Source: Escherichia coli
Lineage (GTDB): Bacteria; Pseudomonadota; Gammaproteobacteria; Enterobacterales; Enterobacteriaceae
Length of the DNA stretch: 64,000 nt
Direction: 5' to 3' (one strand)
Assembly: GCF_041248615.1 (NCBI RefSeq)
Contig: NZ_CP158426.1
The translations under genes and the position numbers were made by a program. Positions 1,832 through 59,498 of this stretch are shown one piece after another. Below the pieces are notes generated by a model. The model searched no databases, had not been told where the DNA came from, and was given only the letters and a program-made list of their open reading frames with translations. The first letter of the stretch is position 1. Every line of letters starts with the position of its first letter.

Positions 1832-3679
1832 TTACCTGATTAATTGTTCCGCTTTCGATACGATTTGCGAGCTGGATCGCGCAGGCAGATCATAATTGTA
1901 AATATCTGTACGATACTGGGTACGACCATCTGCACCAACAAATGCCGTCAGGTAGTAGAGATTTACCGGAATCGACTGCCGAATATTGACGTAACGCGTA
2001 TCACCCTGCTTCAGCGCATCAGAAATACGTTTGTCATTCCAGCCTGCATCCTGCAACAGCATATTCGCCAGATCGGAAGCTTTATTCACTCGTACACAGC
2101 CTGAGCTCAATGCGCGTGTATCACGCTTGAACAGATTGTGGTTCGGCGTGTCATGCAAATAAATGGCCTCTGAACTCGGCATATTGAATTTATAGCGCCC
2201 CAGCGAGTTCCGCGGGCCTGGAGCCTGCTGGAAGCGAAACGGTAAATTTGAGGCCGTGATTGTAGACCAGTCAACCTGCCATGGGTCAATCGCTTCTCTG
2301 CTGTTCCAGCCGCGCATCACCGTATAGCCATGGCTTTCGAGATATCCCGGATCGTTGCGCACTTTCGGCAGAATATCTTTGCGTGCCAGAGTTGGTGGTA
2401 CGTTCCACGGCGGGTTTACCACTACGTTGTTAAGTGCACTACTCATCATCGGCGTTTTGCGATCGGGGCGACCGACAATGACTCGCGAATCCAGCACCTG
2501 ATTGCCGTTCTGATAGTAGACCAGCGAATAGGCTGGAATGTTAACCATAATCCCGGTAGAAAGCTCTGTTGGCAGCAAGCGCAATCGCTGGATGTTGAGT
2601 GCCAACACGCCAGCACGCTGGGCGGGCGTTACGTTTAACCAGTCACGCGTTGCCGGGCCAATAGCGCCATCTGCTCCCAATCCTTGCCATGCCTGAAAAC
2701 GTTTAACGGCTTCCACCAGTTCATTATCGTAGGCGGCACGAACGGCAGGCGCAGGTTTACTACGAGACGTCGTTTGCTTGTCCATCGGCTTAGTTTCTGC
2801 TGTTTCAACAGTAACAGCGGATGGGCTGACTACCGTGTCAGTTGGCGTGTCATCGCCAGGTAGAGTAATTTTCGGCCCCCCGTCCAACATGCCTGTACGC
2901 TGCAATATTTCGCGCAACGCCGGTACGTCGTTACTCCACTGCCCTGGGCGCAACGTTGCTTTGCCGGTCAGTTGGGGCCACGGTTTGGTGTCACTGAGTA
3001 AGGCCAGTAACGATTCATGCATCGCTGCATATTGCGGATGCTGCGGTGCCAGACCTGCAACAAACGTCGGCAATTGACCTTTATCCAGCGCCAGTTGCCA
3101 TTGGTTAATCACCGAGAGCGGCGGCGTTGAAAGCGCATAAGGTTTACTGCTATATAGCCAGCGAGTGCCTTTGACCGGAATATTTGCAATGAAATGGAGA
3201 TAGCCCATCATCGCATCAGAGAGCACGACGTCGCGTGCCATCCCGTTAACACCAGGATCGGTCAGTAACTCTACCCATTTATTAAACTGCGGCTGGAAAC
3301 CGGCAATCGCCACCTCTGCCAGCTGTTGCTGGAAGGCTTTAACAGCATCACGGTTTTCCCACATGGGTTGCATATCGCGTGCGGCATACAACAGTTGAAG
3401 CTGGTTAAGATAAACCGGCTTATAACCTGCGGGTAATTGAGATTCGATTTGCGTGCGGGCTTTTTCTGCCGCACCTTCAGGCAATGGCTGGATCCCCGCC
3501 ATTATTGCCGTGGCTTGCGCCTGCGGCAGTGCCTCGCCCTGTTCACTGACAGCCACCGGGCTGTCGCCAGGGATTACTTCAGGCTCATCGGCCTGCGCAT
3601 TGAACAGTGGAGCGAATGTTACGGCCAGGCACAAACTGATTGCCGACAGCCGACGACCACACATCATATTAAGCAACAT
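1832..3679 (-). CDS. ldtD: L,D-transpeptidase LdtD (YcbB)
   Basis: 615 aa ORF with signal peptide, recognised as YcbB; synteny. Confidence 0.85.
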
Positions 3680-3909
3680 CCCTTGCCCCCTGTTTTTATC
3701 ATACTCTGAATAGCCAGGCTGTTATTTTACGACTTGCCTGTACAACGCCAATACTCACGAAAGTATGACGAGCAAGCCTGTTACTCATCAGGCTTATCTT
3801 CAGTATATAAACGCCGATACGTTTTTACATAACCTAATGTAAAGAAGTTTAAAGAAAAGCGCGCCGTAATGTGCCACTTTTTTAGTGCAGAAACGGAGTT
3901 TTCGGAAAA

Positions 3910-3936
3910 AGAAAAGGCGGCATTGCTGCCGCCTTC
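3910..3936 (-). terminator. rho-independent terminator downstream of mukB
   Basis: On minus strand aaggcggcagcaatgccgcctt followed by T-rich tract, directly after mukB stop. Confidence 0.6.
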
Positions 3937-3939
3937 ATT

Positions 3940-6900
3940 TTAACTCGCCTGGGAAGGCGCTTCGTCACTTCCTGGAAGCGTTTCAGGGAGTTGCGGCGCA
4001 AATCCTCGCAGGCCGACGACGTGAACGTGTTCGGTATTCTGGAAGACTTTACGCACCAGTTTATAGGTGGTGCCTTTTTCCGGACTGATATTTTCCGGCG
4101 CTGCGATGATGAGCTGCATTTGCAAACGTTCACACAATTCAAACAGCGTGGCGATAGAACGAGCATCCAGTCGCGCTGCTTCATCGAGGAACAGCAGGCG
4201 GCAAGGAGAGATATCTTTACCGCGCAGGCGGCGAGATTCATCTTCCCAGCTTTGTACCACCATCACCAGAATCGACATACCGGTACCAATCGCCTCACCG
4301 GTCGACAATGCGCCAGACTCTGCGCGCAACCAGCCATCGGAACCACGGTTAACCTCAACTTCCATTTCCAGATAGTTGCGGTAATCCAACAGTTCTTCAC
4401 CGATGGTCTGCGGCGTGCGCTGCCCCATATCAATCTGCGGATTAAGACGCTGATACAATTTCGCCAGCGCTTCCGAGAAGGTCAGACGGTTGCTGTTAAA
4501 CAGATCCTGATGCTGCTCGTGCTGTTCAGAGAGCACATCCAGCAGCATGGCGTGCGTTTCACGCACGTTCACGTTGAGGCGCACGCTGTTCACCTGACCA
4601 AACGATACGTTCTGCAACCCCTGGTTGAGCATACGGATACGGTTCTGCTCGCGCTGAATGGTTTTGCGAATGATGTTCGCCACGCTGCGGGAACTGATCG
4701 CCAGTTTCTGTTCACGGGAGGTTAACTCTTCGGTCAGACGGCTAAGTTCGATCTCCATCTGTTCGATAGCTTCCACCGGATCATCGGTACGAATAATATC
4801 CTGACGAATACGTTCACGCAGATGCTGATAAACCGCCACGAAGAACTGAATTTTACGCTCCGGACGTTTCGGATCTTCCGACATGCGCAGCACGTCGCGC
4901 AGATGTTCGTTATCCGCCACCGCCAGACGCAGCGCACCTAACGCCTTATCCGACATAGAGCGCAAATCATCAGCGGAGAGATAAGCCAGCTCACGACGGT
5001 GTAAGCGACGCTCAACGCCGTTATCTTTCACCATGCGCATGACTGCACACCAGCCCGCTTTCGCGGTCACTACCTGCTCGCGCATCTCAAAGTAATCACG
5101 CTCCAGCTTTCGCAGTTTGCGGGTCAGGTTGTCCATCTCCGCTTCGCAGAAGGTGAGCGCTTTTTCCAGTTGATTGCGGCGTGAACGGTTATTGCTCAGT
5201 TGCGCATGCAGCTCGTCACGGCGAATACGTGCCCGCTCTTCTGCCCCGCTATCAGCACGCACGCCGATATCCTGCAATTCACGTTGCAGATCGTTAAGTA
5301 GCTCTTTTTTGGTGTCATACGAACTTTTCAGCGAAGCCAGCACCTGGTTGTACTGACTCAACTGCGCTGCGTGTCCGCGCAACGCTTCACGCGCGCGGGT
5401 ACGCTCCGCTTCCGCCTGTTCCAGACGTTCACGCAGTTTTTCGTTGAGATCGCTGTTACCGCTCAGCATTTCTGCCGAGTCAGAGTAGCTAAAGTGCGCA
5501 CGACGCTGCACCACTTCCGTCAGGGCAAACGCCTGCTGACGGGCATCGCGCTGCATCTGCTGAGAGTACGCGTAATCTTCTTTTAACTGTTCGAACTGTT
5601 CCGGGTCGCTCTGCAATACCGAAACGATCGGTTCCAGTTTCGCCAGTTGATTGCCAAACTGCTGAACAAAACGCGCGGCTTCCTGGGCTTCATCCAGACG
5701 TTCGCGGATTTCATCGACGCGATCCGCCAGGCTGTCATCAGCCAACAGGTTTAGACGCGGCAGAATGCGGTTCAGCGCCGTAACACCCTCTTTCGCCTGC
5801 TCAAACTGAATACGCTGCTGCTGGTTATCATTTTCATGATTACTCAACGCCCGCTCCAGTTCGACGCGACGGCTGTTCAGTTGACGGATTTCGGCTTCCG
5901 GATCAGACTCAAACGCCACCGCCAGATGACTACCTATAAAGCGGCTGAATGCCTGATGCAGACGCTGGGTTTTCTGTACATCAAAGGAGAGCGTGGCGAA
6001 GCGTTCGGAAAGTACTTCACGCTCGGCATGGAGGCTTTCAATACGGCTTTCACGCGCAGCACGACCAAACAGCGGCACTTCCGGGAAACGTGAATAACGC
6101 CACTGACGATCGGCGATTTTCACCACTACCGCTTTTTCCAGCTCATCAACGCTGAACACGCTGTCATCGAATGACTGCGGATCCCCTTCGATCAAATAGA
6201 GATCTTCCGGGCAATCGGTCAAGCCTTCCAGGTGTTCGGTTACCTGTGACAGATCTGGCACCACGATGGCGTGGCGTGACGGGCCATACAGCGCCGAGAA
6301 GTACGGCGCATCTTCCAGACTCACGTCGTCATAAATTTCGGACAGCAGCACACCACCAAAACGCTCCGCCAGCGCATTCAAACGCTGGTCTTCAGAACCA
6401 CCTGGCTGGCTTAAACGTTCGATCTCTTCATCGACGGTGTTTTTGCGCGCGCCTACTTCATCGCGTTCAACAATGGCTTCGCGCTCACGCTCCAGCAACT
6501 GTTGCAGATATTCGGTGACATCCTGGCTGGAAGAGAACTCTTCGCCGCACTGTTCGCTCAACTGGTTGAGGCTGTTTTGCGCTGCCAGCCAAACCGGTGC
6601 ACGCTGCATCAAACTCTGAATGCGAGACTGCAGCTGTTCCTGTTCCTGGCGCAGTGCCATGCGCTCTTCACGGGCGTTAGACACGCTATCGGAAAGAGAG
6701 GCAATGCGTGCTTCCAGCTCCTGATGCAGAGCTTCCAGTTCATCAATATCAAAATTCTTGCCCTGACGTTTGCAGAAATCTGCCAGCAGGCGTTCGGCTT
6801 CTTGCTGCTCGCGCAGACGCTGTTCCAGTTCGCTTAAGCGCATCCGCAACGGTTGAACCTGCTCTGCCAGGTGACGCTGATCGACCCCTTCGCGCAATAG

Positions 6901-42592: not shown

Positions 42593-43597
42593 TTACTGGT
42601 CGATGGACAGTTTATGGACACTTTCAGCCAGCGGATTAAAGCTGATCGCATCCTGTAAAAAGTCCGGTGAAAAATGCGCATACGTCATCGTTTGCTGAAT
42701 CGTGGCGTGACCCAGGATCCTCTGCAACGTGACGATGTTCCCGCCGTTCATCATGAAATGCGTGGCGAACGTGTGCCGCATGACATGCGTGGCCTGCCCT
42801 TTGGGTAAGTCGGGCTTCACCTCCTGAAGGATCTCCCTGAAACTGAGATAATCAACCTGATATAACAGGCCGGTCCGGCGGGTTTTAATTAACGGCACAA
42901 CGGAATCAGCTACAGGAACCGAGCGCGATTTCCCGTTCTTTGTGTTAAAGAACGTCACCCTGTTACCCACGATGTGTTCCCCGCGAAGCGTTGACGCCTC
43001 TTTCCATCTGGCCCCGGTCGAAAGGCACAGAATGGCAATGCGTCGTGCATCACCCTCAAGCCGTTTCAGAAGGCGATCAATCTCGTCATCTGAAAGAAAG
43101 GCCATTTCTGTATTCTGAACCTTGAGTTTACGTATTCCGCGCACAGGGTTTTCGTTATGATAAACCTCCGCGTCAATTAACAACGAAAACATCGCAGATA
43201 AGGCGCACAGGTCGCGATTGATACTGGACGGCATCAGTCCCGCCTGCAACTTATCCGAGCGATACTCAATCACGAATTTTCGTGTCATCTGGCTGGCGCG
43301 CGGGTCCCCCATTTCACGTATCACCTTCTCCAGTCTGGTTCTGTAGGTATCACCATATGCCTGATTACGACCATCAAGCATCCACCACACCTCAATCAGT
43401 TCTGATAACCGCCGTTGATCGGCGGGCCTTGCCTGCCACGGGTTATTGTGGAAATTCTGAAGAACGTATCTTTCGAATTCCTGCGCCTTTGATTTCAGGG
43501 TGAAAATCTTACGAATCCGCCTTCCTCCCGCCCCCTGAGGCCTTACATCAACCTGATAACGTCCGTCTTTGAGTTGCTTAATCGACATGATCAGCAC
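42593..43597 (-). CDS. int: tyrosine-type phage integrase (P2 Int-like)
   Basis: 334 aa ORF; C-terminal HxxR...Y catalytic motifs (VMRHTFATHF, LGHATIQQTMTYAHF); N-terminus IKQLKDGRYQVDVRP resembles P2 Int; adjacent to host junction. Confidence 0.85.
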   Translation of the reverse strand: MLIMSIKQLKDGRYQVDVRPQGAGGRRIRKIFTLKSKAQEFERYVLQNFHNNPWQARPADQRRLSELIEVWWMLDGRNQAYGDTYRTRLEKVIREMGDPRASQMTRKFVIEYRSDKLQAGLMPSSINRDLCALSAMFSLLIDAEVYHNENPVRGIRKLKVQNTEMAFLSDDEIDRLLKRLEGDARRIAILCLSTGARWKEASTLRGEHIVGNRVTFFNTKNGKSRSVPVADSVVPLIKTRRTGLLYQVDYLSFREILQEVKPDLPKGQATHVMRHTFATHFMMNGGNIVTLQRILGHATIQQTMTYAHFSPDFLQDAISFNPLAESVHKLSIDQ

Positions 43598-46675: not shown

Positions 46676-47158
46676 TTATCGGGAAAAACCGATCGTAATG
46701 GCAGCCATCATCTTTTCAGCGAAAGAGAGAGATTCACGATGACTGATATTCAGAGACATACAGGCTTTGTTGTACGCCACATTTTCCATGCATTCCAGGA
46801 CAGGAGAGTCATGCATCTCAAGCTCTGGAAGGCGTGCCAGCAGAGCTTCCGTACTGAGGAGGGCGCTTTTGGTAATCAACTCATTGTAGCGATGGGCATG
46901 CTCACTCGCCGCCTGCGCACGTTGCCCGAAACGACATATGAAATTACAGGCTCCGAGAACCACCACCACTGCCCCAAGCACCCAGCCGAAATGCCAGCCG
47001 GCTACGATGAACGCACCCGCCGCAAGGATCAAAATGTTGATGATCGCATCAAGGCGACGATTGAATACCGCCGCGATGCGCTCCAGCCAGTAGCTGTACC
47101 AGAGACGGAACATGACCTCATCCCGTTCTCTCGATTTTTTACGTTGGTTGTTTTGCAT
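46676..47158 (-). CDS. hypothetical membrane protein, opposite orientation within early region (160 aa)
   Basis: ORF with basic N-terminus and long hydrophobic segment AIINILILAAGAFIVAGWHFGWVLGAVVVVLGACNFI; RBS-like gaggga upstream; the overlapping plus-strand ORF 46658-47293 is His-rich and judged a shadow. Confidence 0.45.
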   Translation of the reverse strand: MQNNQRKKSRERDEVMFRLWYSYWLERIAAVFNRRLDAIINILILAAGAFIVAGWHFGWVLGAVVVVLGACNFICRFGQRAQAASEHAHRYNELITKSALLSTEALLARLPELEMHDSPVLECMENVAYNKACMSLNISHRESLSFAEKMMAAITIGFSR

Positions 47159-48979: not shown

Positions 48980-51490
48980 ATGAGCCATCACCACACGCAC
49001 CTGGCGTACCCGTGGAACGCCCCGCTGCCGGTTATTGATCCTGAGACATTCGGCAGAGCATTACCGCAGAAGCCAACCGCATTACAACGGGCAATCCGTG
49101 ACTACCTCACCGAAGACATTCGCACTGAGGCCCGGCTGGATGAAGAAACCGTGGCCTTCCTGACAACCACGGACAAAGGTAAGCAAATTAATTCACACCT
49201 TCACCGGGACGAAGAGCGGCAGATAAGGCTGGATAAGCTGGCACGACACAGACGCGAAAATCCGCCAACGGCGGTATCGGAGGCGATAGCCGAACTTCGC
49301 ACCCTGCCCTCGTTTCTTGCCAGTGTGTTGATCCGTGATCTGGCACGACTGAACCGGAAACAGCAAAGTGCCCGCAGTGAAGGTGTAAAAAACAACAGCG
49401 CATACGTGGCCGATAATTTCGTTCGCCGTGGACTGCGTGCGCGCCTGAAACGTATTGAAAGGGTTAACGACCGCTTTGCAACGCCGGCATTCAAAACCAC
49501 CGTCGTGCGCCATCGCCTTGAAGAACTGCTCACACTGCCGCAACTCACCCGTGACGAAATCCAGCGCATCGCCACACTGACAGCCCAGGCATTCGCCGCA
49601 GAATTTGAACGCATATGTGATGAAGTTCTTGAACGGACAGGCAAGGATAATGACAGCCCGGTTATCTGGCTGCTGGCCTACCAGAAGGTGGCACGCACAG
49701 CCTTAATTCTGGGCATGGTCCCGCCATACTGGCCGGAACTCGAAATCAGGCACAACCGACGCACACCGCCGGACCCTGAACGGGTTCCGGGTGCGGTACT
49801 GCGCATCACCTGCGCGACCTGGTGGAACAACCAGTTACGCCACGTCGCCGATCTCTGGCGGGAGGAGTTACTGCGCGCCGCCGGCAGAGTGTCACGTAAA
49901 CAATCCCCCTATATCAGCCATGAGTCACTACTGGAGTTCCGCGAGAAGCGCCAGCGCACCTGTGACTTTCTCAAAAGCTGGGATATTGAAAACGAAGACG
50001 GCGAGCGCCTGAGTCTGGAGGACGTGTACTGGGCTGGCCTGGGTAATCCACGCAACCGCCGCAATGAAATGATGGTCTGCGTCAGAGGGATGGAGATGGT
50101 GGCCGAATTACGGGCTGACGTCGCATTCTTCATCACAGTAACCACCCCTTCCCGCTTTCACAGCGTGAACGAGAACGGCAGCCTGAACCCGAAATACAAC
50201 GGTGCCACAGTACGAGATGCCAGTGATTATCTGGTTTACGACTTCTTCGCAGCCGTAAGAAAAAAAATAAAAAAAGAGGGGCTGGGCTGGTACGGCGTGC
50301 GAACCGCTGAGCCACACCATGACGGCACGCCACACTGGCATATGCTGGTATTCACTTCCCCGGAGAACGCAGAGCGCATCATCGAAATTATGCGCGAAGC
50401 AGCAATTAAATCAGATCGCCACGAACTGGGGGACGATATTTCACCGCGCTTTAAATGCGAGAAGATAGACCCGGAAAAAGGCACACCGGCAAGCTATATC
50501 GCAACCTATATCGGTAAGAACCTGGACGCCAGCGCTTTCCACAACAATGATCCGAAAACCGGAAAACCTTACGTTGATGAGGAATCCGGGAAAACCATGG
50601 CGGAAACCGTGGAGAACGCCATTGCCTGGGCAAGCCTTCACCGCATCCGTCAGTTCCAGTTTTTCGGCATTCCGCCCCGCCAGGTATGGCGTGAACTCCG
50701 CCGCCTTGCAAGCCAGATGGAGCGCAACCCGGCATCACCGAAGCACCTCGATCATGACGATATTGACGCCATTATGGCTGCCGCAGATGTGGGATGTTTT
50801 GCCACCTACATCATGAAACAGGGTGGTGTGCTCATTCCGCGCAACCAGTATCTGGTCCGCACCGCATACGAAACCGCAGACGAAGCCAACGACTACGGTG
50901 AATTCCCTCAACGTATCTACGGAATCTGCGCCCCGTCGCTCGGAGAGCGGTACACCATATGCACCCATCCGGACGAGTGGAAACTGGTTAAAAAAGAAAC
51001 AACACCAGACAACCGCACGGGCGAGGGTTTTGACCTTCATGGCGACCCCGTCGCCCCTTGGACTCGTGGCAATAACTGTCCCCGGGATGAAAAAACAGAC
51101 AATCACGGACCAGAAAACAGGCAGGACCCCGGACGACTGACGCTTCCCGAAGAGAACCTGGAAAGCTGGCTGAATACGTTAAGCAGGGGCGATCGGAGAA
51201 AACTGCGTAATCAGATTAAAAATCAGCCGTCGGGCGCAAAAACCGGACAAAACGACACCACACCGGCATCTGACACCCCTGTAAGGGTGGGGATTGTCGT
51301 GCCTGCGGATACCGCGACGGACACGCAAATCGCCCGCGAACTTGATGCGCTGGGTGTGCAGTTGCCTGACGCGGCCATCATCTCCGTGCGTAACGGTGCC
51401 CGTGTGCGTCTGGATAACGGGGGAACAGCGTACTGGGATGAGTCAGCCCGTCACATCATCACAGAGCAGCCAGTGGAGGCGGGAGCATGA
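48980..51490 (+). CDS. A: replication initiation endonuclease, P2 gpA-like (rolling-circle)
   Basis: 836 aa ORF in the gene A position; HUH-type GTPHWHMLVF motif. Confidence 0.8.
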   Translation: MSHHHTHLAYPWNAPLPVIDPETFGRALPQKPTALQRAIRDYLTEDIRTEARLDEETVAFLTTTDKGKQINSHLHRDEERQIRLDKLARHRRENPPTAVSEAIAELRTLPSFLASVLIRDLARLNRKQQSARSEGVKNNSAYVADNFVRRGLRARLKRIERVNDRFATPAFKTTVVRHRLEELLTLPQLTRDEIQRIATLTAQAFAAEFERICDEVLERTGKDNDSPVIWLLAYQKVARTALILGMVPPYWPELEIRHNRRTPPDPERVPGAVLRITCATWWNNQLRHVADLWREELLRAAGRVSRKQSPYISHESLLEFREKRQRTCDFLKSWDIENEDGERLSLEDVYWAGLGNPRNRRNEMMVCVRGMEMVAELRADVAFFITVTTPSRFHSVNENGSLNPKYNGATVRDASDYLVYDFFAAVRKKIKKEGLGWYGVRTAEPHHDGTPHWHMLVFTSPENAERIIEIMREAAIKSDRHELGDDISPRFKCEKIDPEKGTPASYIATYIGKNLDASAFHNNDPKTGKPYVDEESGKTMAETVENAIAWASLHRIRQFQFFGIPPRQVWRELRRLASQMERNPASPKHLDHDDIDAIMAAADVGCFATYIMKQGGVLIPRNQYLVRTAYETADEANDYGEFPQRIYGICAPSLGERYTICTHPDEWKLVKKETTPDNRTGEGFDLHGDPVAPWTRGNNCPRDEKTDNHGPENRQDPGRLTLPEENLESWLNTLSRGDRRKLRNQIKNQPSGAKTGQNDTTPASDTPVRVGIVVPADTATDTQIARELDALGVQLPDAAIISVRNGARVRLDNGGTAYWDESARHIITEQPVEAGA

Positions 51491-51918
51491 CGCGATTTTG
51501 CTGCACCATGCAGCGCCCACAGTTTGAGGCCATCATGCGCCAGCGTATGCCGGTGCTGACACTGTTCAGGCCTGCCACAAGGCCACAACCGGGCGACGAG
51601 CTGGAAATCACGATAGTCAGCCCCGATCGCACCACGGAGACCACCATCGCCGACATACTCAACAGGCGGCCGGGCAGCGAGAGCCATAGCTGGACTGTCG
51701 TCATTCGTCCGCGCCGTTCGCCGGAGGAACCGGAGCCGTGCACGCCTGCCGGGAAAATCATGCAGAGATATCACGAAGAGCGGACACGCAGGCACAACGG
51801 CGGACTGGCCAGAACACTGAACACAGTCAATCACAAGGCCGCGCTGGCGCGAATGGTCTTTTCACCACAACGCAATTCATTCGCCAGACCAGCACAGAAC
51901 GGGAGGAAACAACAGTGA
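51487..51918 (+). CDS. hypothetical protein (143 aa), translationally coupled to gene A
   Basis: ATGA overlap with A stop; RBS ggagg upstream. Confidence 0.4.
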   Translation: MTRFCCTMQRPQFEAIMRQRMPVLTLFRPATRPQPGDELEITIVSPDRTTETTIADILNRRPGSESHSWTVVIRPRRSPEEPEPCTPAGKIMQRYHEERTRRHNGGLARTLNTVNHKAALARMVFSPQRNSFARPAQNGRKQQ

Positions 51919-52109
51919 GCAGAATATTACTTTTTCTGCTGTTTTTCGCGCCATTCGCACAATCAGCCACGCCGAACTGCGTAGCGAAAAAGAGCAACAC
52001 CGTTGTCATTGTCCAGTGTGATGACGGCACGGTAACAATCACCGACTCGAGCAAAGGAAGCGTCATTGTCTGCCGTAAAGAGAAACCCTGTCAGCGAACC
52101 GAACTTTGA
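51915..52109 (+). CDS. hypothetical small secreted Cys-containing protein (64 aa, GTG start)
   Basis: GTGA overlap with preceding stop, RBS gggagga 7 nt upstream; signal-peptide-like SRILLFLLFFAPFAQSA then 4 Cys in about 45 residues. Confidence 0.4.
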   Translation: MSRILLFLLFFAPFAQSATPNCVAKKSNTVVIVQCDDGTVTITDSSKGSVIVCRKEKPCQRTEL

Positions 52110-52120
52110 AGGAAAAATAT

Positions 52121-52435
52121 ATGAACAGGAAACAGAAGCAGGAACTGAAAGGCTTCTTACGTAAAGAAATTGCCAGGCTGGAAGATGTGGAATCTCAGTC
52201 ATCAGATATTCCATTCGGAATGGATATCAACGACGCCTGTATGCTCCAGGTATACCGCATAGCTCAGGCTGCACTACAGGCAAAACCGTCAGATGGACTG
52301 GTTAGAGCAGTACGTTTCTATGAACTGGTAAAGCGTGAGAATCCGCCAGTCGAAACCGGAGCATGGCAAGACGCTGTTGACTGGGTGCTCAAAGAGGCTT
52401 GTCAGGTTGTAAACACTGGCATCAAAGGAGACTGA
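52121..52435 (+). CDS. hypothetical protein (104 aa)
   Basis: ORF 52106-52435; start at MNRKQKQ with RBS gaagga; first gene of a coupled three-gene set. Confidence 0.45.
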   Translation: MNRKQKQELKGFLRKEIARLEDVESQSSDIPFGMDINDACMLQVYRIAQAALQAKPSDGLVRAVRFYELVKRENPPVETGAWQDAVDWVLKEACQVVNTGIKGD

Positions 52436-52436
52436 T

Positions 52437-52646
52437 ATGGCTATTGCCGCAAGTTACACCATGCATCTCTATTGTGATTGTCGCCAGTGTACAAATGGTA
52501 AATATCAAACGCCAGACTTCGGTGAATATATCGGTACGTCATGGACTGGCTGTGCAAAAGAGGCGCGTAAGGATGGCTGGCGAATAAGCAAAGACAAAAC
52601 TCGTGCTTTTGCGCCCGGGCATAAAGTTTTGAGGATTAACAAATGA
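52437..52646 (+). CDS. hypothetical small Cys-containing protein (69 aa)
   Basis: Starts 2 nt after previous stop; CDCRQC...C pattern suggests a metal-binding knuckle. Confidence 0.45.
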   Translation: MAIAASYTMHLYCDCRQCTNGKYQTPDFGEYIGTSWTGCAKEARKDGWRISKDKTRAFAPGHKVLRINK

Positions 52647-53044
52647 CCACTATAACCAAAGAGCGACTACTGACAATCAGGCAGTGGCGCGAAACATACG
52701 GACCTGGTAGCAACGTTGTACTGCCAGCCGAAGAAGCGGAAAAACTGGCACGGATTGCTTTGGCATCGCTGGAAGCAAAACCAATAGGTGCTTTCCACAT
52801 TGCAGAACAGCAGGTCGATGGCACAAGTGACTACATCAAGGATGGGGAGTACCGCTTGCTGACATCTGAAGAACAAAAGATAGCCCAACTTTTAGGCGAT
52901 GCATGGAACCTGTATTTTACATTGCCAGTTGAGCATCCAATGGGTAGAGATGAATTTTGCCGGGCAATTCATCATTGCCAAAATATGGTGTTGGCACGCC
53001 CTGCCATCAGGGCGCTGGCCAGTAAGGGGCAAGGCTATAAATAG
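52643..53044 (+). CDS. hypothetical protein (133 aa)
   Basis: ATGA overlap with previous ORF; followed by terminator. Confidence 0.45.
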   Translation: MTTITKERLLTIRQWRETYGPGSNVVLPAEEAEKLARIALASLEAKPIGAFHIAEQQVDGTSDYIKDGEYRLLTSEEQKIAQLLGDAWNLYFTLPVEHPMGRDEFCRAIHHCQNMVLARPAIRALASKGQGYK

Positions 53045-53045
53045 A

Positions 53046-53077
53046 TGAGCAAAACGCCCTCCTCCAGGGCGTTTATT
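53046..53077 (+). terminator. rho-independent terminator after the coupled gene cluster
   Basis: aaacgccctcctccagggcgttt hairpin followed by atttc. Confidence 0.65.
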
Positions 53078-53081
53078 TCAA

Positions 53082-53170
53082 TGCACAATAGTGCACAAAT
53101 TTGCACAATTTTTTTGAACGACTTTTTGCCCTTCCGGCCCGTGTGGCGTCTGGATCCGTCGGGGATCCGT
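53082..53170. promoter_or_regulatory. phased direct repeats (operator or iteron-like)
   Basis: TGCACAA at 53082, 53092 and 53102 (exact 10-bp phasing); GGATCCGT twice at about 53151 and 53163. Confidence 0.45.
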
Positions 53171-53534
53171 GCGTGCACGAAAAAAGGCCTTTTTCTGCGC
53201 GCAGGTGACGGGGGAACAGCCCGCGTTTCAGGGGGTAAATAGCATTCCCTGAACGATGTTGCAGCGACACAACAGAATGGCTGTATTTCTCACGCTGAGC
53301 GTAAAAAAGACGTAAAAGCTTGATTTGATGGGGGTGAAAGATAAGGCCGTCAAAATCGCACTGAGGCAGCGAGAATATGTCGTCAGAGTTGCGGGGTTGC
53401 GTAAGCATCCGCCCGGCGATGATGGCTACAAGGTTGGAGATGTTGTGAAATTATCTGAAGGAATAACCAGCTTGCAGGAGAACCCGGGCAAAGTCAGAAT
53501 AGCGGCAGGCATCAACTCAAAAGAGGATAATGTC

Positions 53535-53634
53535 ATGAGCCACTTTAATGATTTATGCCAGATCAATCGTGAAGCTGAAGAAAAACGCGCTGAGGCAGCT
53601 CAAATTTTGCGGGATGAAGCGGCAAGGCTGATTG
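53535..53634 (+). pseudogene. 5' portion of a phage cargo gene interrupted by the IS21-family element
   Basis: RBS aagagga 7 nt upstream of ATG at 53535; the reading frame continues in phase with ORF at 56221-56625 once the IS is removed. Confidence 0.4.
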
Positions 53635-53829
53635 ATTGCGTATTTTCATGAAAGGAGATCACTCAATAACTTCCATCGAGATCGGGTAATAACATTTGAA
53701 CAGATCGCTGAATAACATCGATGGAGATCACTTTTGACTCATTTTGTTATTCAGTGATCTCCATCAATGTTATTGGAACTTCACAGGTGTGTTGATCTGT
53801 ATCTTTTGCCATTCCGGTAAAGGATACCT

Positions 53830-55371
53830 ATGCCAACAGTTCCAATTTCTATGAGAAAACTTAAAGAAATTCTTAGGCTTAAATACGGTGTTGGACTCAG
53901 CCATCGACAAATTGGTCGTAGTCTTGCAATCTCCCCTTCCGTTGTATCCAGATATGCTAATCGGGCGGCTCAACTTGGCATAAAGCAGTGGCCCTTACCT
54001 ACAGGATGGGATGATACAAAACTAAAACATGCGTTCCTTCAGACCCAGGTTAAGATGAAGAAGCACTCTCTGCCTGACTGGGCTACAGTACACCGGGAAC
54101 TGCGTAATAAATGCGTGACGCTGCAGCTACTCTGGGAAGAATACTGTGAGCGTAATCCAGGCGGTTTTTACAGCTATAACCATTACTGCCGGATGTACCG
54201 TGAATGGCTCAAAACCACTTCACCATCAATGCGTCAGGTACATAAAGCTGGCGAAAAACTTTTCGTTGATTACTGTGGACCTACCGTTGGCGTTACCGAC
54301 CCTGAGACCGGAGAAATAAGAACTGCTCAGGTCATCGTAGCTGTTCTCGGGGCATCAAGTTACACATGGGCAGAGGCCACCTGGTCTCAGCAGCTTGAAG
54401 ACTGGGTGATGAGTCATGTTCGCTGCTTCCAGTGGTTGGGTGGCGTTCCTGAACTTGTTGTTCCGGACAATCTGAAAAGCGCCACATCCAGGGCATGTAA
54501 GTATGATCCTGACGTTAACCCTACCTACCAGCAGATGCTTGAGCATTATAATGTCGCAGTTTTGCCTGCGCGGCCACGTAAACCGAAAGATAAAGCCAAA
54601 GCTGAAGTTGGCGTTCAGGTTGTTGAACGCTGGATCATGGCCCGAATCAGGCATGAGATCTTCTACAGCCTTGCATCGCTTAATCAGCGCATTCGGGAGT
54701 TGCTGGAAAGACTGAATAACAAAATAATGCAGAAGTTGGGTTATTCACGTGCAGAACTCTTCATCCAGCTTGATAAACCCGCACTGAAGCCTCTTCCTGA
54801 AGCCAGTTACAGTTACACCCTGGTGAAGAAAGTCAGAGTTCATGCCGATTACCACGTGGAAATCGACAAACATTACTACTCGGTTCCATGTTCGCTGTTA
54901 GGCCAGCAACTGGAAGCATGGATCTCCGGAGAACTGGTAAGACTCTTCAATCAGGGGCAGGAGGTTGCTGTGCACCCGCGCAAGCGTACTTATGGCTACA
55001 GTACCCGCAACGAGCACATGCCTGAAGCTCATCGACAGCATGCCACCTGGACGCCAGAGCGTCTTCTGGAATGGGCGGGGCACATAGGCAGTGAAACTCA
55101 TAGTTATGTGCTTCATATACTGAACTCTCGTCCACATCCGGAACAAAGCTATCGCTTCTGCCTTGGACTCCTGAACCTTCATAAAAAATACAGTAAAGCC
55201 AGACTTAATGCAGCATGTGCAAGAGCTCTGAAAACAAAGGTATGGCGTCTGTCAGGTATTAAATCGATCCTGGAAAAAGGTCTGGATAAACAACCTGTTC
55301 AGGATCCAAAACCAGATCTGTTATCCACGATGGAACACGAAAACGTACGCGGCAGTGAGTATTACCACTGA
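53830..55371 (+). CDS. istA: IS21-family transposase IstA
   Basis: 513 aa ORF; N-terminal HTH (LSHRQIGRSLAISPSVVSRY) and integrase-like core. Confidence 0.85.
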   Translation: MPTVPISMRKLKEILRLKYGVGLSHRQIGRSLAISPSVVSRYANRAAQLGIKQWPLPTGWDDTKLKHAFLQTQVKMKKHSLPDWATVHRELRNKCVTLQLLWEEYCERNPGGFYSYNHYCRMYREWLKTTSPSMRQVHKAGEKLFVDYCGPTVGVTDPETGEIRTAQVIVAVLGASSYTWAEATWSQQLEDWVMSHVRCFQWLGGVPELVVPDNLKSATSRACKYDPDVNPTYQQMLEHYNVAVLPARPRKPKDKAKAEVGVQVVERWIMARIRHEIFYSLASLNQRIRELLERLNNKIMQKLGYSRAELFIQLDKPALKPLPEASYSYTLVKKVRVHADYHVEIDKHYYSVPCSLLGQQLEAWISGELVRLFNQGQEVAVHPRKRTYGYSTRNEHMPEAHRQHATWTPERLLEWAGHIGSETHSYVLHILNSRPHPEQSYRFCLGLLNLHKKYSKARLNAACARALKTKVWRLSGIKSILEKGLDKQPVQDPKPDLLSTMEHENVRGSEYYH

Positions 55372-55382
55372 TACGGGATCCA

Positions 55383-56132
55383 ATGATGAATCATCTTTAC
55401 GAACAACTGACCGCACTTAAACTCACCGGCTTCCGTGATGCGCTTAAAAAGCAACTTGCTCAGCCGGGCACATACCAGGAGCTGGGCTTCGAAGAACGCC
55501 TGTCATTACTGACAGCAGAAGAACTAACCTGCCGTGAAAACAGGAAGGCAGAGCGTCTGATCAAACATGCACGGTTCAGACTTAATGCTGAGTTATCAAA
55601 GCTGGATTATCGTAACAATAGAGGGCTGGACAGGGCCCTCATCCGTTCACTCAGTCAGGGAAACTGGTTAACCCTGAAACAAAATATTTTACTGACCGGG
55701 GCCACCGGCAGCGGTAAAACGTTCCTGGCATGTGCACTTGGTCATAATGCCTGCCGACAGGGATACAAGGTCTACTATTATCGCCTTAAAGCGCTGATGG
55801 AACAGTGCTATCAGGGGCATGCTGATGGAAGATACAGCAAACTTTTGACCAGGCTGAATAATAGCGATCTGCTGCTTCTGGATGACTGGGGGCTGGAACC
55901 TCTCTCATCAGAACAGCGTAGCGACCTGCTGGAAATAGTGGATCTGATGTACCAACGAGGCTCAATCATCGTAGTGAGCCAGTTGCCGGTGGAAAACTGG
56001 TACAAAATGATCGGAGACTCCACACATGCGGATGCCATCCTAGATCGACTGGTTCATGGCAGTATCAAGATCGAACTTAAAGGAGAATCAATGCGGAAAA
56101 TACAATCTCCGTTGACCGAAGGAGATCAGTGA
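55383..56132 (+). CDS. istB: IS21-family helper ATPase IstB
   Basis: 249 aa ORF with Walker A GATGSGKT and Walker B LLLLDDWG. Confidence 0.85.
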   Translation: MMNHLYEQLTALKLTGFRDALKKQLAQPGTYQELGFEERLSLLTAEELTCRENRKAERLIKHARFRLNAELSKLDYRNNRGLDRALIRSLSQGNWLTLKQNILLTGATGSGKTFLACALGHNACRQGYKVYYYRLKALMEQCYQGHADGRYSKLLTRLNNSDLLLLDDWGLEPLSSEQRSDLLEIVDLMYQRGSIIVVSQLPVENWYKMIGDSTHADAILDRLVHGSIKIELKGESMRKIQSPLTEGDQ

Positions 56133-56220
56133 AGGTAATTTAAAAACGGTTCTGTGAAAGTGACACGAACCGATCTCCATCGATGTTACTCACCGATCTC
56201 CTTCACGGTAATACGCAATT

Positions 56221-56625
56221 GATTTCTATGAAGAATGGCTGGGGCTTCCATCCATGTACTGGGAAGACGATGATGGCGACCTGCACCGCTACGTGGAGAC
56301 AGGCTTGCCATGTAAGACAGCGGCGGATTTTAGTCCTCTTTCAGTCCACAATATCGCATCTGCACCAGACAATATTTTCCGCATGGCCGTGCGAACCTGG
56401 GTTAAGTCATCTGACAGCAGCTACCCGGTAAGCGTGGTTATTGCACTTGAATTATATTCAGTAGATGCGGAACGGGTGTCTCTGAGAGTCCGGGTGGAAG
56501 ACGATATTTCTGTTCGCGTATTTATCAATAAACCCAGCGAAGAAGCCTGGGGCGATGTTGTTATGCACATGAAAAAGCACATCGCTAATCACCTGAAAAA
56601 GCGAGCGCCATCAGCACTTCGTTAA
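56221..56625 (+). pseudogene. 3' portion of the IS-interrupted phage cargo gene
   Basis: Open frame from the IS right junction (DFYEEWLGLPSMYWEDDDGDLHRY...) to stop at 56625, in phase with the upstream fragment. Confidence 0.4.
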
Positions 56626-56691
56626 GCAGAGCTGGAGAGTCGGGGCATAAATTTTTTATGCCCCGGCGAAGCAGCAGACAAGCGAAGCGCG

Positions 56692-57747
56692 TCAGGATAT
56701 GGGCTGGGTGTCTAACAGTGCGTAAGGGTTAAAACGGATCACCTCTTCGCCCAGCCAGTCGTTGACGTGTTTCATTGCTTCCATGACGGGCATCAGTTCG
56801 TTAATGGCAAACACACGGGCTGCCTTCTCCACATCCCCGAATGACCCCTTCTCACCCGGCATGGCCCCCATCAGCTGCGGCGGTACACGGTGCACGGACA
56901 GCACATCATCACGCGATGCAGCCTTGACGTTCATGAACTCATCCTTTGCGGTGATTTGCTGAAACGGCAAAATCTGTACGCCATCCTTACCACCTCCCGC
57001 CGCGTGGATGAGCAGATTTTTAAACGCCCCGCCACCACGCGCGCTTTGCAGTGTTTCCCGCAGTTTTTCCATGCTTTCACGGTCAACCTGCGCCGCACCG
57101 ATGTAGACAATACAGCCCGCGTGTGAGCCGTTATCGTAGTAGAGCTTGCGGAAGATATCGGCGGAATGTGACAGGCTGGCAGACAGCAGGCCGCCCAGGT
57201 AATCCGGCATCCCGTAAATCTCCTGGTTGATATCAGGATTCATCAGGTGGCATATCGTCCCCTCACGAAAGCGGTACTCTTCCTGTCCTTCCTGTATATA
57301 CCACCATGATTTCATATCGCTGCCACGTCGCATGTATTTCGCCAGCGCCCGGCGCAGGGCCAGCGGTTCGCCAAGCATGTTGCGCCGCAGCTCAAGACAG
57401 GCATTACCGAACACAAACCAGTCCATCGCCACCCCGGCGAACTCCTGGCGGGACAGCAGAGGATGTGGAATATAGCAGCCCAGCAGCACATTACGTTTGA
57501 AGCTGAGCGCCGACTGGTGCCAGGACGTCTGGCGGGCAGCCCGTGCCAGTCCGTACCAGTCAACGGGCGTTTCAAACCACCGCCCGTTGTCGGCGCAGTA
57601 CATGCTGTCCAGCAGGTCGGCCCCTGACAGCCGGTAAGGTCCTTCAAACGTGAAGGCACTCAGTGTCGGGTCGCTTCGCAGGGAATCCGCAAGGCTGCCC
57701 TGCGCTGCGCGGGCGTTCGTACGTCGTTGTTTATTTTTTCTGCTCAT
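56692..57747 (-). CDS. Q: phage portal protein, P2 gpQ-like
   Basis: 351 aa ORF, leftward, stop overlapping the downstream terminase gene; position and size match P2 Q. Confidence 0.8.
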   Translation of the reverse strand: MSRKNKQRRTNARAAQGSLADSLRSDPTLSAFTFEGPYRLSGADLLDSMYCADNGRWFETPVDWYGLARAARQTSWHQSALSFKRNVLLGCYIPHPLLSRQEFAGVAMDWFVFGNACLELRRNMLGEPLALRRALAKYMRRGSDMKSWWYIQEGQEEYRFREGTICHLMNPDINQEIYGMPDYLGGLLSASLSHSADIFRKLYYDNGSHAGCIVYIGAAQVDRESMEKLRETLQSARGGGAFKNLLIHAAGGGKDGVQILPFQQITAKDEFMNVKAASRDDVLSVHRVPPQLMGAMPGEKGSFGDVEKAARVFAINELMPVMEAMKHVNDWLGEEVIRFNPYALLDTQPIS

Positions 57748-59498
57748 CAGAACTCCGTAACACTGAAGGGGGCGGCATCATGTTCACCGCCGACAGGTTC
57801 GTTGATAACGGCCAGCATGGTGGCCCATGCAAGATCGCCATGGCTTACGCCTCTTGCGCGATCTGTTTCGTAGGTGATAAATCCGGCCTGCGTTTTTGTT
57901 TTGCGTACCGCGTTAAAGGCGCTCACCAGTTCGCGCTCGCTGCGGTCGTACTCCCACCGCCCGGCGCGCATGAGCTGCAGCATCTTCAGAACCAGCGTGC
58001 GCTTTGATGACAGGGTGAAGGTGTAGGGAATGGCTGCCGGAAAAAAGCGCTTCACAATCTGATACACCGCATCCCCGTGACCGCCGGTTACGTCAATACC
58101 GATATGCTCAACGTTATAGCGAAAGGTGAACTCTTCAATCACCTTCGCCTGCGCCTCAAACTCCAGCCCCTGCACCCGCCGCGTCTCCACGGTGCGAAAA
58201 CGCCCGCCCGGTACGGCTGGCGGCACCACCACGACAACCGCCCCGCTGTCACCGTTCCCGCTACTGCCGTTGGCGTCGTACCCAATCCACACAGGGCGGT
58301 TCCCCATCGGACGCGGTGCAAACGGCTTCCAGTCCGGCCACTCGTCGTATCCGTCAACACCGCAGCCAATCAGGATATTCAGGTTAAATGCCGATTCCCC
58401 TTCGCGAGCAAATTCACACATGTAGAGATTGCGGAACTCGTCTTCAGTGTTATTGCGCCGGATTTTGTCAATGTTGGTTAACGTCCATCCCTGACTGACC
58501 ACATCTTCCAGCGTCACAATTTGCCGCCAGATATAGTCAGGACAGATAAGGCCGTTATGAAGCGCATTCCAGCTCACATCAAAATGCTGACGTTTATGAG
58601 TACGAAGCCCTTCATTCCAGTGATCGCCGTTCCAGTATGCATACGCCTCATGTGTTTCACTTGATGGCGTGGAAAAATAGGTACACCGCAAACCATCCAG
58701 CGTTGCCATAGCAGCAGCCACCTTGCGCAGCTCTGCGAAACGCCCCGTCCAGAAAAACTCATCAAAATACAGATTCCCTGTGTACGCTTGCGCGGTGGCC
58801 GCAGAAGTGCCGAGAAAATGCAGCTCTGCACCGTTGGAGAGGATGACTTTATCGCCCCCTTTCAGTTCCACATCAACTTCAGATGCAGCCTTCTGAATAA
58901 TGCTTTTAAACTGGAGCGCCTGACGACGAGACGCAGACAAAAAAATCTGGTTACGCTGGTAAGGTTGTGCCACATCGTCACGCAGCGCCATCAGCAGCGC
59001 TTCCTGCGCAAAATACCAGGTCGCCCCAATCTGGCGGGATTTCAGGATCATCCTGTCAGTAATTCCGGCACGCTCACAGGCACCGATAGCATCAAGCCAT
59101 TTGCGCTGGTGTCCGGCCAGCCTGTCGGTAATTTTTTCCCGCAGCGCCGCGATCTGTTCCGGCGTGAAATGATTTTTGTGTTTTTTCGCCCGGCCTTTCT
59201 TTCCTGTTGCCGTCTCATCCGGCAGACCGTCATGCAGCTTTTTAAGCTGACGGGTCAGCAAATCAATTTCCTTAAAGTCCCCGCCTGTTTTATTCTGTTT
59301 TTCCGTGAGCTGAATGAGTCGCGCATCCATGGACTGCGTGACACGCTGAACCGGGGGCGTCTCATCCCACTGGTCGCGTTTTTTCCACGAATGGATCGTG
59401 TTCTGGTTGATACCCATAAGGCGGGAAATTTCCGCAACAGGGTAACCCTGCCAGTACAGCTGGCGTGCCCGCTGGCGAACAAATGTATCCTGAATCAT
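57747..59498 (-). CDS. P: terminase large (ATPase) subunit, P2 gpP-like
   Basis: 583 aa ORF, leftward, divergent from O; size and position match P2 P. Confidence 0.8.
   Translation of the reverse strand: MIQDTFVRQRARQLYWQGYPVAEISRLMGINQNTIHSWKKRDQWDETPPVQRVTQSMDARLIQLTEKQNKTGGDFKEIDLLTRQLKKLHDGLPDETATGKKGRAKKHKNHFTPEQIAALREKITDRLAGHQRKWLDAIGACERAGITDRMILKSRQIGATWYFAQEALLMALRDDVAQPYQRNQIFLSASRRQALQFKSIIQKAASEVDVELKGGDKVILSNGAELHFLGTSAATAQAYTGNLYFDEFFWTGRFAELRKVAAAMATLDGLRCTYFSTPSSETHEAYAYWNGDHWNEGLRTHKRQHFDVSWNALHNGLICPDYIWRQIVTLEDVVSQGWTLTNIDKIRRNNTEDEFRNLYMCEFAREGESAFNLNILIGCGVDGYDEWPDWKPFAPRPMGNRPVWIGYDANGSSGNGDSGAVVVVVPPAVPGGRFRTVETRRVQGLEFEAQAKVIEEFTFRYNVEHIGIDVTGGHGDAVYQIVKRFFPAAIPYTFTLSSKRTLVLKMLQLMRAGRWEYDRSERELVSAFNAVRKTKTQAGFITYETDRARGVSHGDLAWATMLAVINEPVGGEHDAAPFSVTEF

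Follow-up and report, generated by a model that had tools for sequence, protein, structure and literature searches.

Small accessory genes of mosaic origin behind gene A of a P2-like prophage of Escherichia coli

Introduction

A stretch of 64,000 nucleotides (nt) from Escherichia coli (contig NZ_CP158426.1 of assembly GCF_041248615.1; hereafter the window) holds a P2-like (Peduoviridae) prophage in which five small open reading frames (ORFs) lie directly behind the replication gene A. They are labelled P1 to P5 here, labels that do not refer to the phages P1, P2 and P4. The question raised by this locus is whether the five genes make up one multi-component module, as suggested in an initial annotation that likened the cluster to toxin-antitoxin, exclusion or defence systems, or whether they are separate genes brought together at one site. 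The site is the slot between gene A and the portal gene (gpA-gpQ slot), which the initial annotation had taken for an anti-phage hotspot; the gene order of the window agrees with this assignment, and the slot is a published defence hotspot of P2-like phages (Rousset et al. 2022, PMC9122126). Table S5 of the same study lists the locus as 'hypothetical x6' under the accessions WP_000196517, WP_001080487, WP_072668117, WP_024211219, WP_000951718 and WP_000086827, which are absent from its Table S2, so the locus stood outside the tested systems. The accessions were not found in the main texts of papers.

As argued below, the cluster probably forms the far end of the transcription unit of gene A and is an array of independently assorting accessory genes with early accessory functions, not one system.

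Results

Mosaic structure and distribution of the cluster

A breakpoint map made with blastn, in which other prophages were also compared, places at least five recombination joints in the 1.6-kb cluster and shows it to be assembled from at least four sources. The segments and their closest relatives are listed in Table 1. The G+C content falls from about 0.62 at the end of gene A and in ORF P1 to about 0.47 from ORF P2 onward, the drop lying within ORF P2. A widely exchanged piece consists of ORF P4 and approximately the first 45 codons of ORF P5, with 93–97% nt identity to Shiga-toxin (Stx), phiV10 and P1-like phages.

Of 5426 complete E. coli genomes, 21 hold the entire 1.9-kb region in near-identical form, all within a single near-clonal prophage type. 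Pieces of it, mostly the ORF P4 block, occur in 2188 of the genomes, with no more than 10 copies in any of them, and 196 phage records contain such pieces as well. The exact ORF P2 and ORF P4 proteins are present in thousands of assemblies, always in the same prophage, and this confinement speaks for clonal spread and not for independent conservation. The five genes are thus not kept together in unrelated elements; their parts assort separately. A comparison of the slot across related P2-like prophages, as proposed in the initial annotation, revealed swapping of cargo behind a constant gene A and ORF P1. Of the single module proposed there, what keeps partial support is a linkage within two pairs, ORF P2 with P3 and ORF P4 with P5, which recurs in other phages.

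Architecture and coding status of the five ORFs

The five tightly packed ORFs, with the lengths and the GTG start originally described, were confirmed from the sequence at 51487-53044 (Table 1). The stop codon of gene A overlaps the start of ORF P1 in ATGA, ORFs P1 and P2 meet in GTGA, and ORFs P4 and P5 again in ATGA. Of the four junctions inside the cluster, only these last two are overlaps; the remaining two are short gaps, one of 11 nt with an AAGGA ribosome-binding site between ORFs P2 and P3, the other of 1 nt with AAAGGAG between ORFs P3 and P4. The stop/start overlaps described for the last three ORFs therefore apply to P4/P5, and P3 and P4 abut with a single nucleotide between them. 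The clean terminator reported behind ORF P5 stood up to folding: a 9-bp G+C-rich stem with a 5-nt loop (53052-53074) is followed by UUUAUUU, none of 200 shuffled sequences was equally stable, and the combination of a stable G+C-rich hairpin with a U-run is that of a Rho-independent terminator. A second, weaker hairpin of this kind lies shortly downstream (Table 1). A consensus scan predicted no plus-strand sigma-70-like promoter in 51000-53700, and an Rfam scan of 51000-57000 gave no matches.

That the five ORFs are more than chance occurrences is concluded from purifying selection on each of them and from the match of each to a PHROG family, all of these families being of unknown function. 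The ratio of nonsynonymous to synonymous substitution rates (dN/dS) against diverged homologues ranges from 0.08 to 0.47, with 0.25–0.47 for ORF P1 (compared with three prophages), 0.41 for ORF P2 (strain P13-6), 0.14–0.23 for ORF P3 (P88-like loci), 0.08–0.14 for ORF P4 (four loci) and 0.18–0.23 for the N-terminal part of ORF P5 (first 48 codons; Stx2 phage 86 and RCS47).

ORF P1

Homologues of ORF P1 (G+C approximately 62%) follow gene A immediately and overlap it by 4 nt in loci L007, L008, L009 and L013, which together with the window represent five prophage types. The genes behind them differ by prophage, namely an 82-amino-acid (aa) protein with ogr, several small ORFs, a 192-aa protein with the YafO toxin, and MarR with SSB. 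Because the 4-nt overlap is constant and the following genes vary, ORF P1 is regarded as part of the gene A lineage and the slot as starting after it. Judged from these comparisons, ORF P1 is lineage core coupled to this gene A type and lies outside the variable slot, so that in this lineage the left edge of the P2 hotspot would be placed after ORF P1, not after gene A. The initial annotation had counted all five ORFs as slot cargo; this is right for P2 to P5, which lie between gene A and the portal gene where the content varies among related prophages (seen in L002, L003, L007-L010 and L013), but not for P1, which travels with gene A.

Relatives of ORF P1 are few. A word search gave 17 clusters, all from E. 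coli, a profile search of 1.84 billion representatives just three clusters, and tblastn against 50,697 phage records, including phage P2, no match at E ≤ 1e-3. The last result rules out a P2 orf91-type conserved early gene, the kind of identity that, if clear for all ORFs, would according to the initial annotation have refuted its reading; ORF P1 is a positional analogue only, within one gene A lineage. The AlphaFold (AF2) model is poor (predicted local distance difference test score, pLDDT, of 64) and confident only in a long basic helix (residues 87-124). An impression of an ASCH/PUA-like N-terminal barrel stays unsupported, the model being too poor for a fold search. ORF P1 is accordingly best described as an orphan gene strictly coupled to a replication initiator.

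ORF P2

The 64-aa product had been described as a secreted cysteine peptide, and its homologues bear this out as far as prediction goes. It begins with the signal peptide MSRILLFLLFFAPFAQS, followed by A at the start of a mature part of about 46 aa with four conserved cysteines. MSR is succeeded by the core ILLFLLFFAPF and by AQS before that alanine, and hydropathy exceeds 2 across residues 1-15; a basic N-region, a hydrophobic core and a small-x-small signal-peptidase-I site are thus all present, as in Sec-dependent secreted proteins. All 17 family members from viral contigs keep the four cysteines and a signal peptide ending in A-x-A or A-x-S, and they also conserve the motif QCDDGTVT and the hydrophobic N-terminal core. 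On these sequence features ORF P2 is a Sec-type secreted protein, its export being predicted.

ORF P2 matches PHROG families 20764 and 11462, and a homologue, gp87, is encoded by the lytic Erwinia jumbo phage Desertfox, so it represents a family of secreted four-cysteine mini-proteins common to temperate and lytic phages. Protein searches with ORFs P1 and P2 found no match in phage P2, which was also absent from the best megablast matches of the region. In the prophage of strain P13-6 the homologue sits between a ParR-like and a ClpX-zinc-finger gene; it is unannotated there (L010 4984-5184), an ORF on the opposite strand having been called in its place.

A possible functional analogue of ORF P2 is Spackle, the early periplasmic superinfection-exclusion protein of the lytic phage T4. 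Like Spackle, ORF P2 is small, predicted to be exported by Sec and encoded in an early transcription unit, with homologues in strictly lytic jumbo phages. It differs in being half the size, and neither a sequence nor a structural relationship emerged from PHROG and PDB sequence searches.

ORFs P3, P4 and P5

ORF P3 is a mosaic protein of what is here called the leader type, with the N-terminus MNRKQKQEL...YRIAQAALQAKP and the C-terminal end GAWQDAVDWVLKEAC. It matches PHROG families 660 and 26213, shares 91–93% aa identity with gp20 of phage P88 and with the CREC-591 homologue, and is scored at E = 2e-4 by a hidden Markov model (HMM) of the leader. Both ORF P3 and ORF P5 match the N-terminal part of phrog_660 and have the motif RIA(Q/L)A(A/S)L(Q/E)AKP in common. 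In protein P0163 the N-terminus of ORF P3 is joined to the C-terminal module of ORF P5, from which it follows that the parts of these proteins are shuffled in frame. An assignment of ORFs P3 and P5 to the ead/Ea22-like family (IPR025153) was rejected, since neither Pfam nor NCBIfam gave a match and the leader HMM misses the Ea22 proteins of lambda and of Stx phages. In phage P88, gp20 (L003 5001-5339) consists of ORF P3 followed by the last eight residues (LAQPASKL) of the P5-like gene of CREC-591 (L002 5015-5878), which indicates that a deletion removed ORF P4 and most of the P5-like gene and fused P3 to the end of the latter.

ORF P4 encodes a small alpha/beta protein with the cysteine pattern C13-x-C15-x2-C18...C39, in which C13, C15, C18 and H62 are invariant and form a putative Cys3-His metal site. 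Many temperate coliphages share a block of about 360 bp with ORF P4 at its core, and homologues of the ORF also occur in virulent phages. Fold comparison gave no match pointing to a function. The homologue in Stx2 phage 86 (L004 4014-4223) is unannotated in the RefSeq record.

By its alignments, ORF P5 is a chimera in which a leader is joined in frame to a small phage domain at the C-terminus. Residues 1-69 ('MTTITKE...ARIALASLEAKP') form the leader common to DUF551-type proteins, and over residues 1-72 the identity to the N-termini of more than 3600 proteins is 92–96%, DUF551 (PF04448) following in the majority of them. These proteins match only the N-terminal 54% of ORF P5, and since Pfam finds no DUF551 in it and only the leader of about 72 residues is in common, ORF P5 was not accepted as a DUF551 protein. 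Residues 72-133 correspond to a stand-alone domain, phrog_13916 (E = 5e-28, covering positions 5-66 of 67), and this 62-residue module is found as ORFs of 60-73 aa in Yersinia P2-like, Enterobacter, Erwinia, Pantoea, Pseudomonas and T5-like Vibrio phages.

The label of phrog_13916, 'NAD-dependent DNA ligase', cannot be adopted, as there is no LigA signal in Pfam or NCBIfam for ORF P5 or for the 73-aa 'subunit A' of Vibrio phage phi 3; a DNA-ligase domain Ia is likewise ruled out for the C-terminal module. The 'subunit B' of phi 3 does match LigA positions 388-650. The phi 3 gene for 'NAD-dependent DNA ligase subunit A' (L014 2477-2698), which encodes this domain of about 65 aa, has replication genes on either side and a true LigA C-terminal fragment nearby, and the ligase label seems to have spread through annotation transfer.

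The Prokaryotic Genome Annotation Pipeline (PGAP) of RefSeq marks the intact ORF P5 as a 45-codon pseudogene fragment in a copy of the same prophage (L001 9244-9378), an annotation error. This flag ('incomplete, missing C-terminus'), two strikes of IS21-family insertion sequence (IS) elements in the slot and the P88 deletion are what could be cited for regarding the cargo as decaying recombination debris, with ORF P5 a pseudogene fragment and the other small ORFs functionless. Such decay is very improbable: all five ORFs are intact with dN/dS below 0.5, the C-terminal half of ORF P5 spans phrog_13916 nearly end to end with 72% aa identity to the Yersinia phage ORF, and the exact proteins recur in thousands of assemblies.

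Recurrent pairs of small genes and leader genes

The neighbourhood of ORF P4 homologues was surveyed in 75 IMG/VR loci; all sampled loci were chosen for containing ORF P4 or P2, and the adjacency frequencies are biased accordingly. The gene after the ORF P4 homologue overlaps the P4 stop codon by 4 nt in 68 of the 75 loci and starts with MTT[ILF]T in 66; it is 70-440 aa long. Of the downstream genes, 72 are complete, and these fall into 18 C-terminal types, 37 of them in one cluster ending like DUF551 proteins and four of the ORF P5 type; the motif WIS..RMP is carried by 30. Genes of the ORF P2 type likewise precede leader-type genes, mostly with a 4-nt overlap, and in the viral contigs L134, L137 and L138 (about 2771-4139) the order is P4-like, P2-like, leader-type with 4-nt overlaps throughout, which connects the two families of small genes seen in the window. 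Since both types of small gene recur in front of leader genes, the window can be read as two tandem pairs, P2-P3 and P4-P5, and the variable C-terminal domains of this common arrangement suggest a diversifying function.

From this recurrence it might be argued that ORF P4 plus leader and ORF P2 plus leader are genuine two-component units in which a constant N-terminus presents a variable C-terminal effector, for example in early counter-defence or host takeover. The overlap and start-motif frequencies, the 18 C-terminal types, the same upstream position of P2-type genes, the strong constraint on ORF P4 (dN/dS about 0.1) and the spread of its block among the complete genomes are all in keeping with such units, which we nevertheless hold to be unlikely. 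In the same biased sample 16 of 96 leader-type genes have no P4- or P2-type gene directly upstream, and fold comparison provided no functional match. The adjacency, judged from sequence, may reflect function or, equally, one recombining block of about 360 bp in which the end of P4 and the beginning of the leader are joined; lambdoid, P1-like, P2-like and phiV10-like phages exchange this block, which approximately 40% of E. coli genomes contain. The broader proposition that P4-type and P2-type genes, each coupled to a variable-domain leader, are a widespread unrecognised two-component phage system for counter-defence, host takeover or exclusion is doubtful.

Comparison with known systems

As stated in the initial annotation, none of the five ORFs is Old, Tin or a member of a named defence family: an identity with these or other known anti-phage proteins was rejected for want of any profile similarity in PADLOC, NCBIfam and Pfam. 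NCBIfam matched none of the five ORFs, PADLOC gave no match better than E = 0.016, Pfam returned nothing for the five concatenated proteins or for ORF P5 alone, and no type II toxin-antitoxin family was matched in any of the three. PDB sequence searches with all five proteins and with the 167-aa protein encoded downstream were equally empty. The cluster shares with the tin/old cargo of P2 its slot between gene A and the portal gene and differs from it in the very small size of its proteins, in having no predicted promoter of its own, in lacking Old, Tin and PADLOC similarity, and in that ORF P1 lies outside the variable part.

It is against this background that the five genes, or P2 to P5, have to be considered as one multi-component defence, exclusion or toxin-antitoxin-like module, hotspot cargo expressed in the lysogen. 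Location in the gpA-gpQ hotspot and the compact coupled architecture agree with such a module, another prophage of the same gene A type has a YafO toxin pair at the same place, and among P2-like elements generally 19% have only unknown genes at the main defence locus, with 15–32% of such unknown proteins predicted to be antiviral (bioRxiv 10.64898/2026.02.27.708500). A single module is nonetheless quite unlikely, considering the negative PADLOC, NCBIfam and Pfam searches, the mosaic joints within a set that is complete in one near-clonal prophage only, and the attachment of ORF P1 to gene A. Moreover, the cluster has no predicted promoter of its own, whereas old, tin and fun of phage P2 are expressed in the lysogen; homologues of ORFs P2 and P4 occur in virulent phages, and relatives of P3 to P5 in the lambdoid early lytic operon.

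One of the two closest relatives is the slot of the P88-like phages (Xuanwuvirus), which contains ParM, a ParR-like protein and a ClpX-type zinc-finger protein, then P3/P4/P5-like genes. The genes occur there in the same order and with the same coupling; ORF P3 is 91–93% and ORF P4 97% identical, and the intergenic stretch ahead of the portal gene shows 87% identity. The window lacks the parM, parR and ClpX zinc-finger genes and has ORFs P1 and P2 in their place; it further differs in the C-terminal module of ORF P5 and in its type of gene A (836 aa against about 940 aa, approximately 70% nt identity).

The other is the set of accessory genes in the exo-xis region of Stx and lambdoid phages. 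There, as in Stx2 phage 86 and many more, the block of ORF P4 and the P5 leader adjoins ead/Ea22-like and DUF551 genes, in an early operon, and the build of the proteins, with a constant N-terminus and C-terminal domains that can be swapped, is that of the Ea22 variants; for mosaic proteins of the Ea22 region a shared N-terminus followed by variable C-terminal domains, DUF551 among them, has been described (PMC10834534). The lambdoid homologues sit in the pL early operon beside exo, bet and gam, whereas the genes of the window lie behind gene A of a P2-like phage, and ORF P5 lacks DUF551. The lambda exo-xis proteins Ea8.5, Ea22, Orf61, Orf63 and Orf60a showed no BLAST similarity. The five genes are thus uncharacterised additions to a known class of mosaic early accessory genes, at a locus that was already catalogued.

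Table 1. Coordinates of the cluster, of its mosaic segments and of neighbouring prophage features in the window
Feature	Position	Strand	Remarks
Integrase gene	42593-43597	minus	
Gene A, replication endonuclease, 836 aa	48980-51490	+	ORF list; RefSeq product name and Pfam Phage_GPA on identical copies
ORF P1, 143 aa, ATG start	51487-51918	+	
ORF P2, 64 aa, GTG start	51915-52109	+	
ORF P3, 104 aa	52121-52435	+	
ORF P4, 69 aa	52437-52646	+	
ORF P5, 133 aa	52643-53044	+	
Intrinsic terminator closing the cluster	53052-53079	+	folding: -15.2 kcal/mol, z = -4.8
Second, weaker terminator-like hairpin, then U7	53091-53115	+	terminator scan; fold z = -1.6
Downstream cargo gene, phrog_5091 family, about 167 aa	53532..56625 (53532-53637 and 56218-56625)	+	alignment with intact L001 copy
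IS21-family element splitting the phrog_5091-family gene	53638-56217		istA 53830-55371, istB 55383-56132
Portal gene	56692-57747	minus	
Portal and large terminase genes	56692-59498	minus	
Segment: gene A and ORF P1	48000-51919		best match FDAARGOS_943 prophage (L007), 89.5% nt; ends at ORF P1 stop codon
Segment: ORF P2	51926-52127		strain P13-6 (L010) only, 83% nt
Segment: ORF P3, ORF P4, start of ORF P5	52109-52662		P88-like prophage of CREC-591 (L002), 93.7% nt
Segment: ORF P4 and ORF P5 codons 1-46	52424-52782		Stx2 phage 86 (L004) and P1-like RCS47, 93% nt
Segment: ORF P5 C-terminal part	52895-53041		small ORF directly after gpA in Yersinia P2-like phage vB_YenM_42.18 (L015), 70% nt
Segment: intergenic region	53030-53458		region before portal gene of P88-like phages, 87% nt

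Downstream region and insertion elements

The intergenic region 53030-53458 is a candidate cos region; the best match to P2 cosL, 13/19 at 53204, is like chance matches elsewhere in the window. Beyond it lies a cargo gene separate from the cluster, assigned to phrog_5091 at E = 3e-52 on the intact L001 copy. Most other copies of this prophage have the gene uninterrupted, and the segment is absent from P88-like phages. In the window the gene is split by an IS21-family element whose terminal inverted repeats are imperfect and whose insertion duplicated a target of 6-7 bp (ATTGATT). A second, independent IS21-like insertion (ISSso4 family) is found in the same slot of E. coli GF60 (NZ_CP172185.1; L012 7314-9621), at the 5' end of ORF P3, and two IS hits within 1.5 kb suggest a preferred target region.

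Discussion

The preferred interpretation, an array of independently assorting genes at the end of the gene A transcription unit, can be put as follows. The five genes would be transcribed together with gene A upon infection or induction, ribosomes moving from ORF to ORF by way of overlapping or abutting stop and start codons. ORF P1 may act, or be regulated, together with the initiator protein A, while ORF P2 would be exported, cut by signal peptidase I and act in the periplasm. ORFs P3 and P5 would each present a swappable C-terminal domain on a conserved helical N-terminus, and ORF P4, the putative metal binder, may work with its leader-type neighbour or merely be co-inherited with it. ORF P3, ORF P4 and the P5 leader derive from the accessory pool that lies beside Ea22 in lambdoid and Stx phages (exo-xis region) and is present in P88-, P1- and phiV10-like phages as well. 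Co-transcription in the early lytic phase fits the data better than a defence expressed in the lysogen because no internal promoter is predicted, and the early timing also agrees with the place of the lambdoid homologues in the pL operon and with the relatives of ORFs P2 and P4 in virulent phages. Early accessory genes of temperate coliphages, Shiga-toxin phages among them, have been reported to influence the outcome of the lysis-lysogeny decision (PMC10834534). By analogy with the exo-xis genes, to whose modulators ORFs P3 to P5 in particular would correspond, the five genes most likely adjust host physiology or the choice between lysis and lysogeny in early development and do not serve the defence of the lysogen.

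Several points weigh against this interpretation. The roles assigned to all five proteins remain proposals drawn from sequence, and the early-lytic timing depends solely on the scarce intergenic space and on a crude consensus promoter scan. A 160-aa minus-strand gene at 46676-47158 (hypothetical in RefSeq copies) lies inside the otherwise rightward early region, and this complicates the assignment of a promoter to gene A and the cluster. That the slot is a hotspot of defence genes is proven, and of eight untested 'hypothetical' loci in the related P4 hotspot six turned out to be defensive (bioRxiv 10.64898/2026.02.27.708500). Finally, the recurrent coupling of small genes to leaders could reflect function rather than shared recombination joints, its frequencies coming from IMG/VR loci selected for the small genes themselves.

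On the array interpretation the locus drops out of the promising candidates for multi-gene defence systems. The small items found here, among them an orphan gene coupled to its initiator, a secreted mini-protein family and the leader genes with their exchangeable domains, would add to the poorly understood early accessory genes of temperate coliphages, including Shiga-toxin phages.

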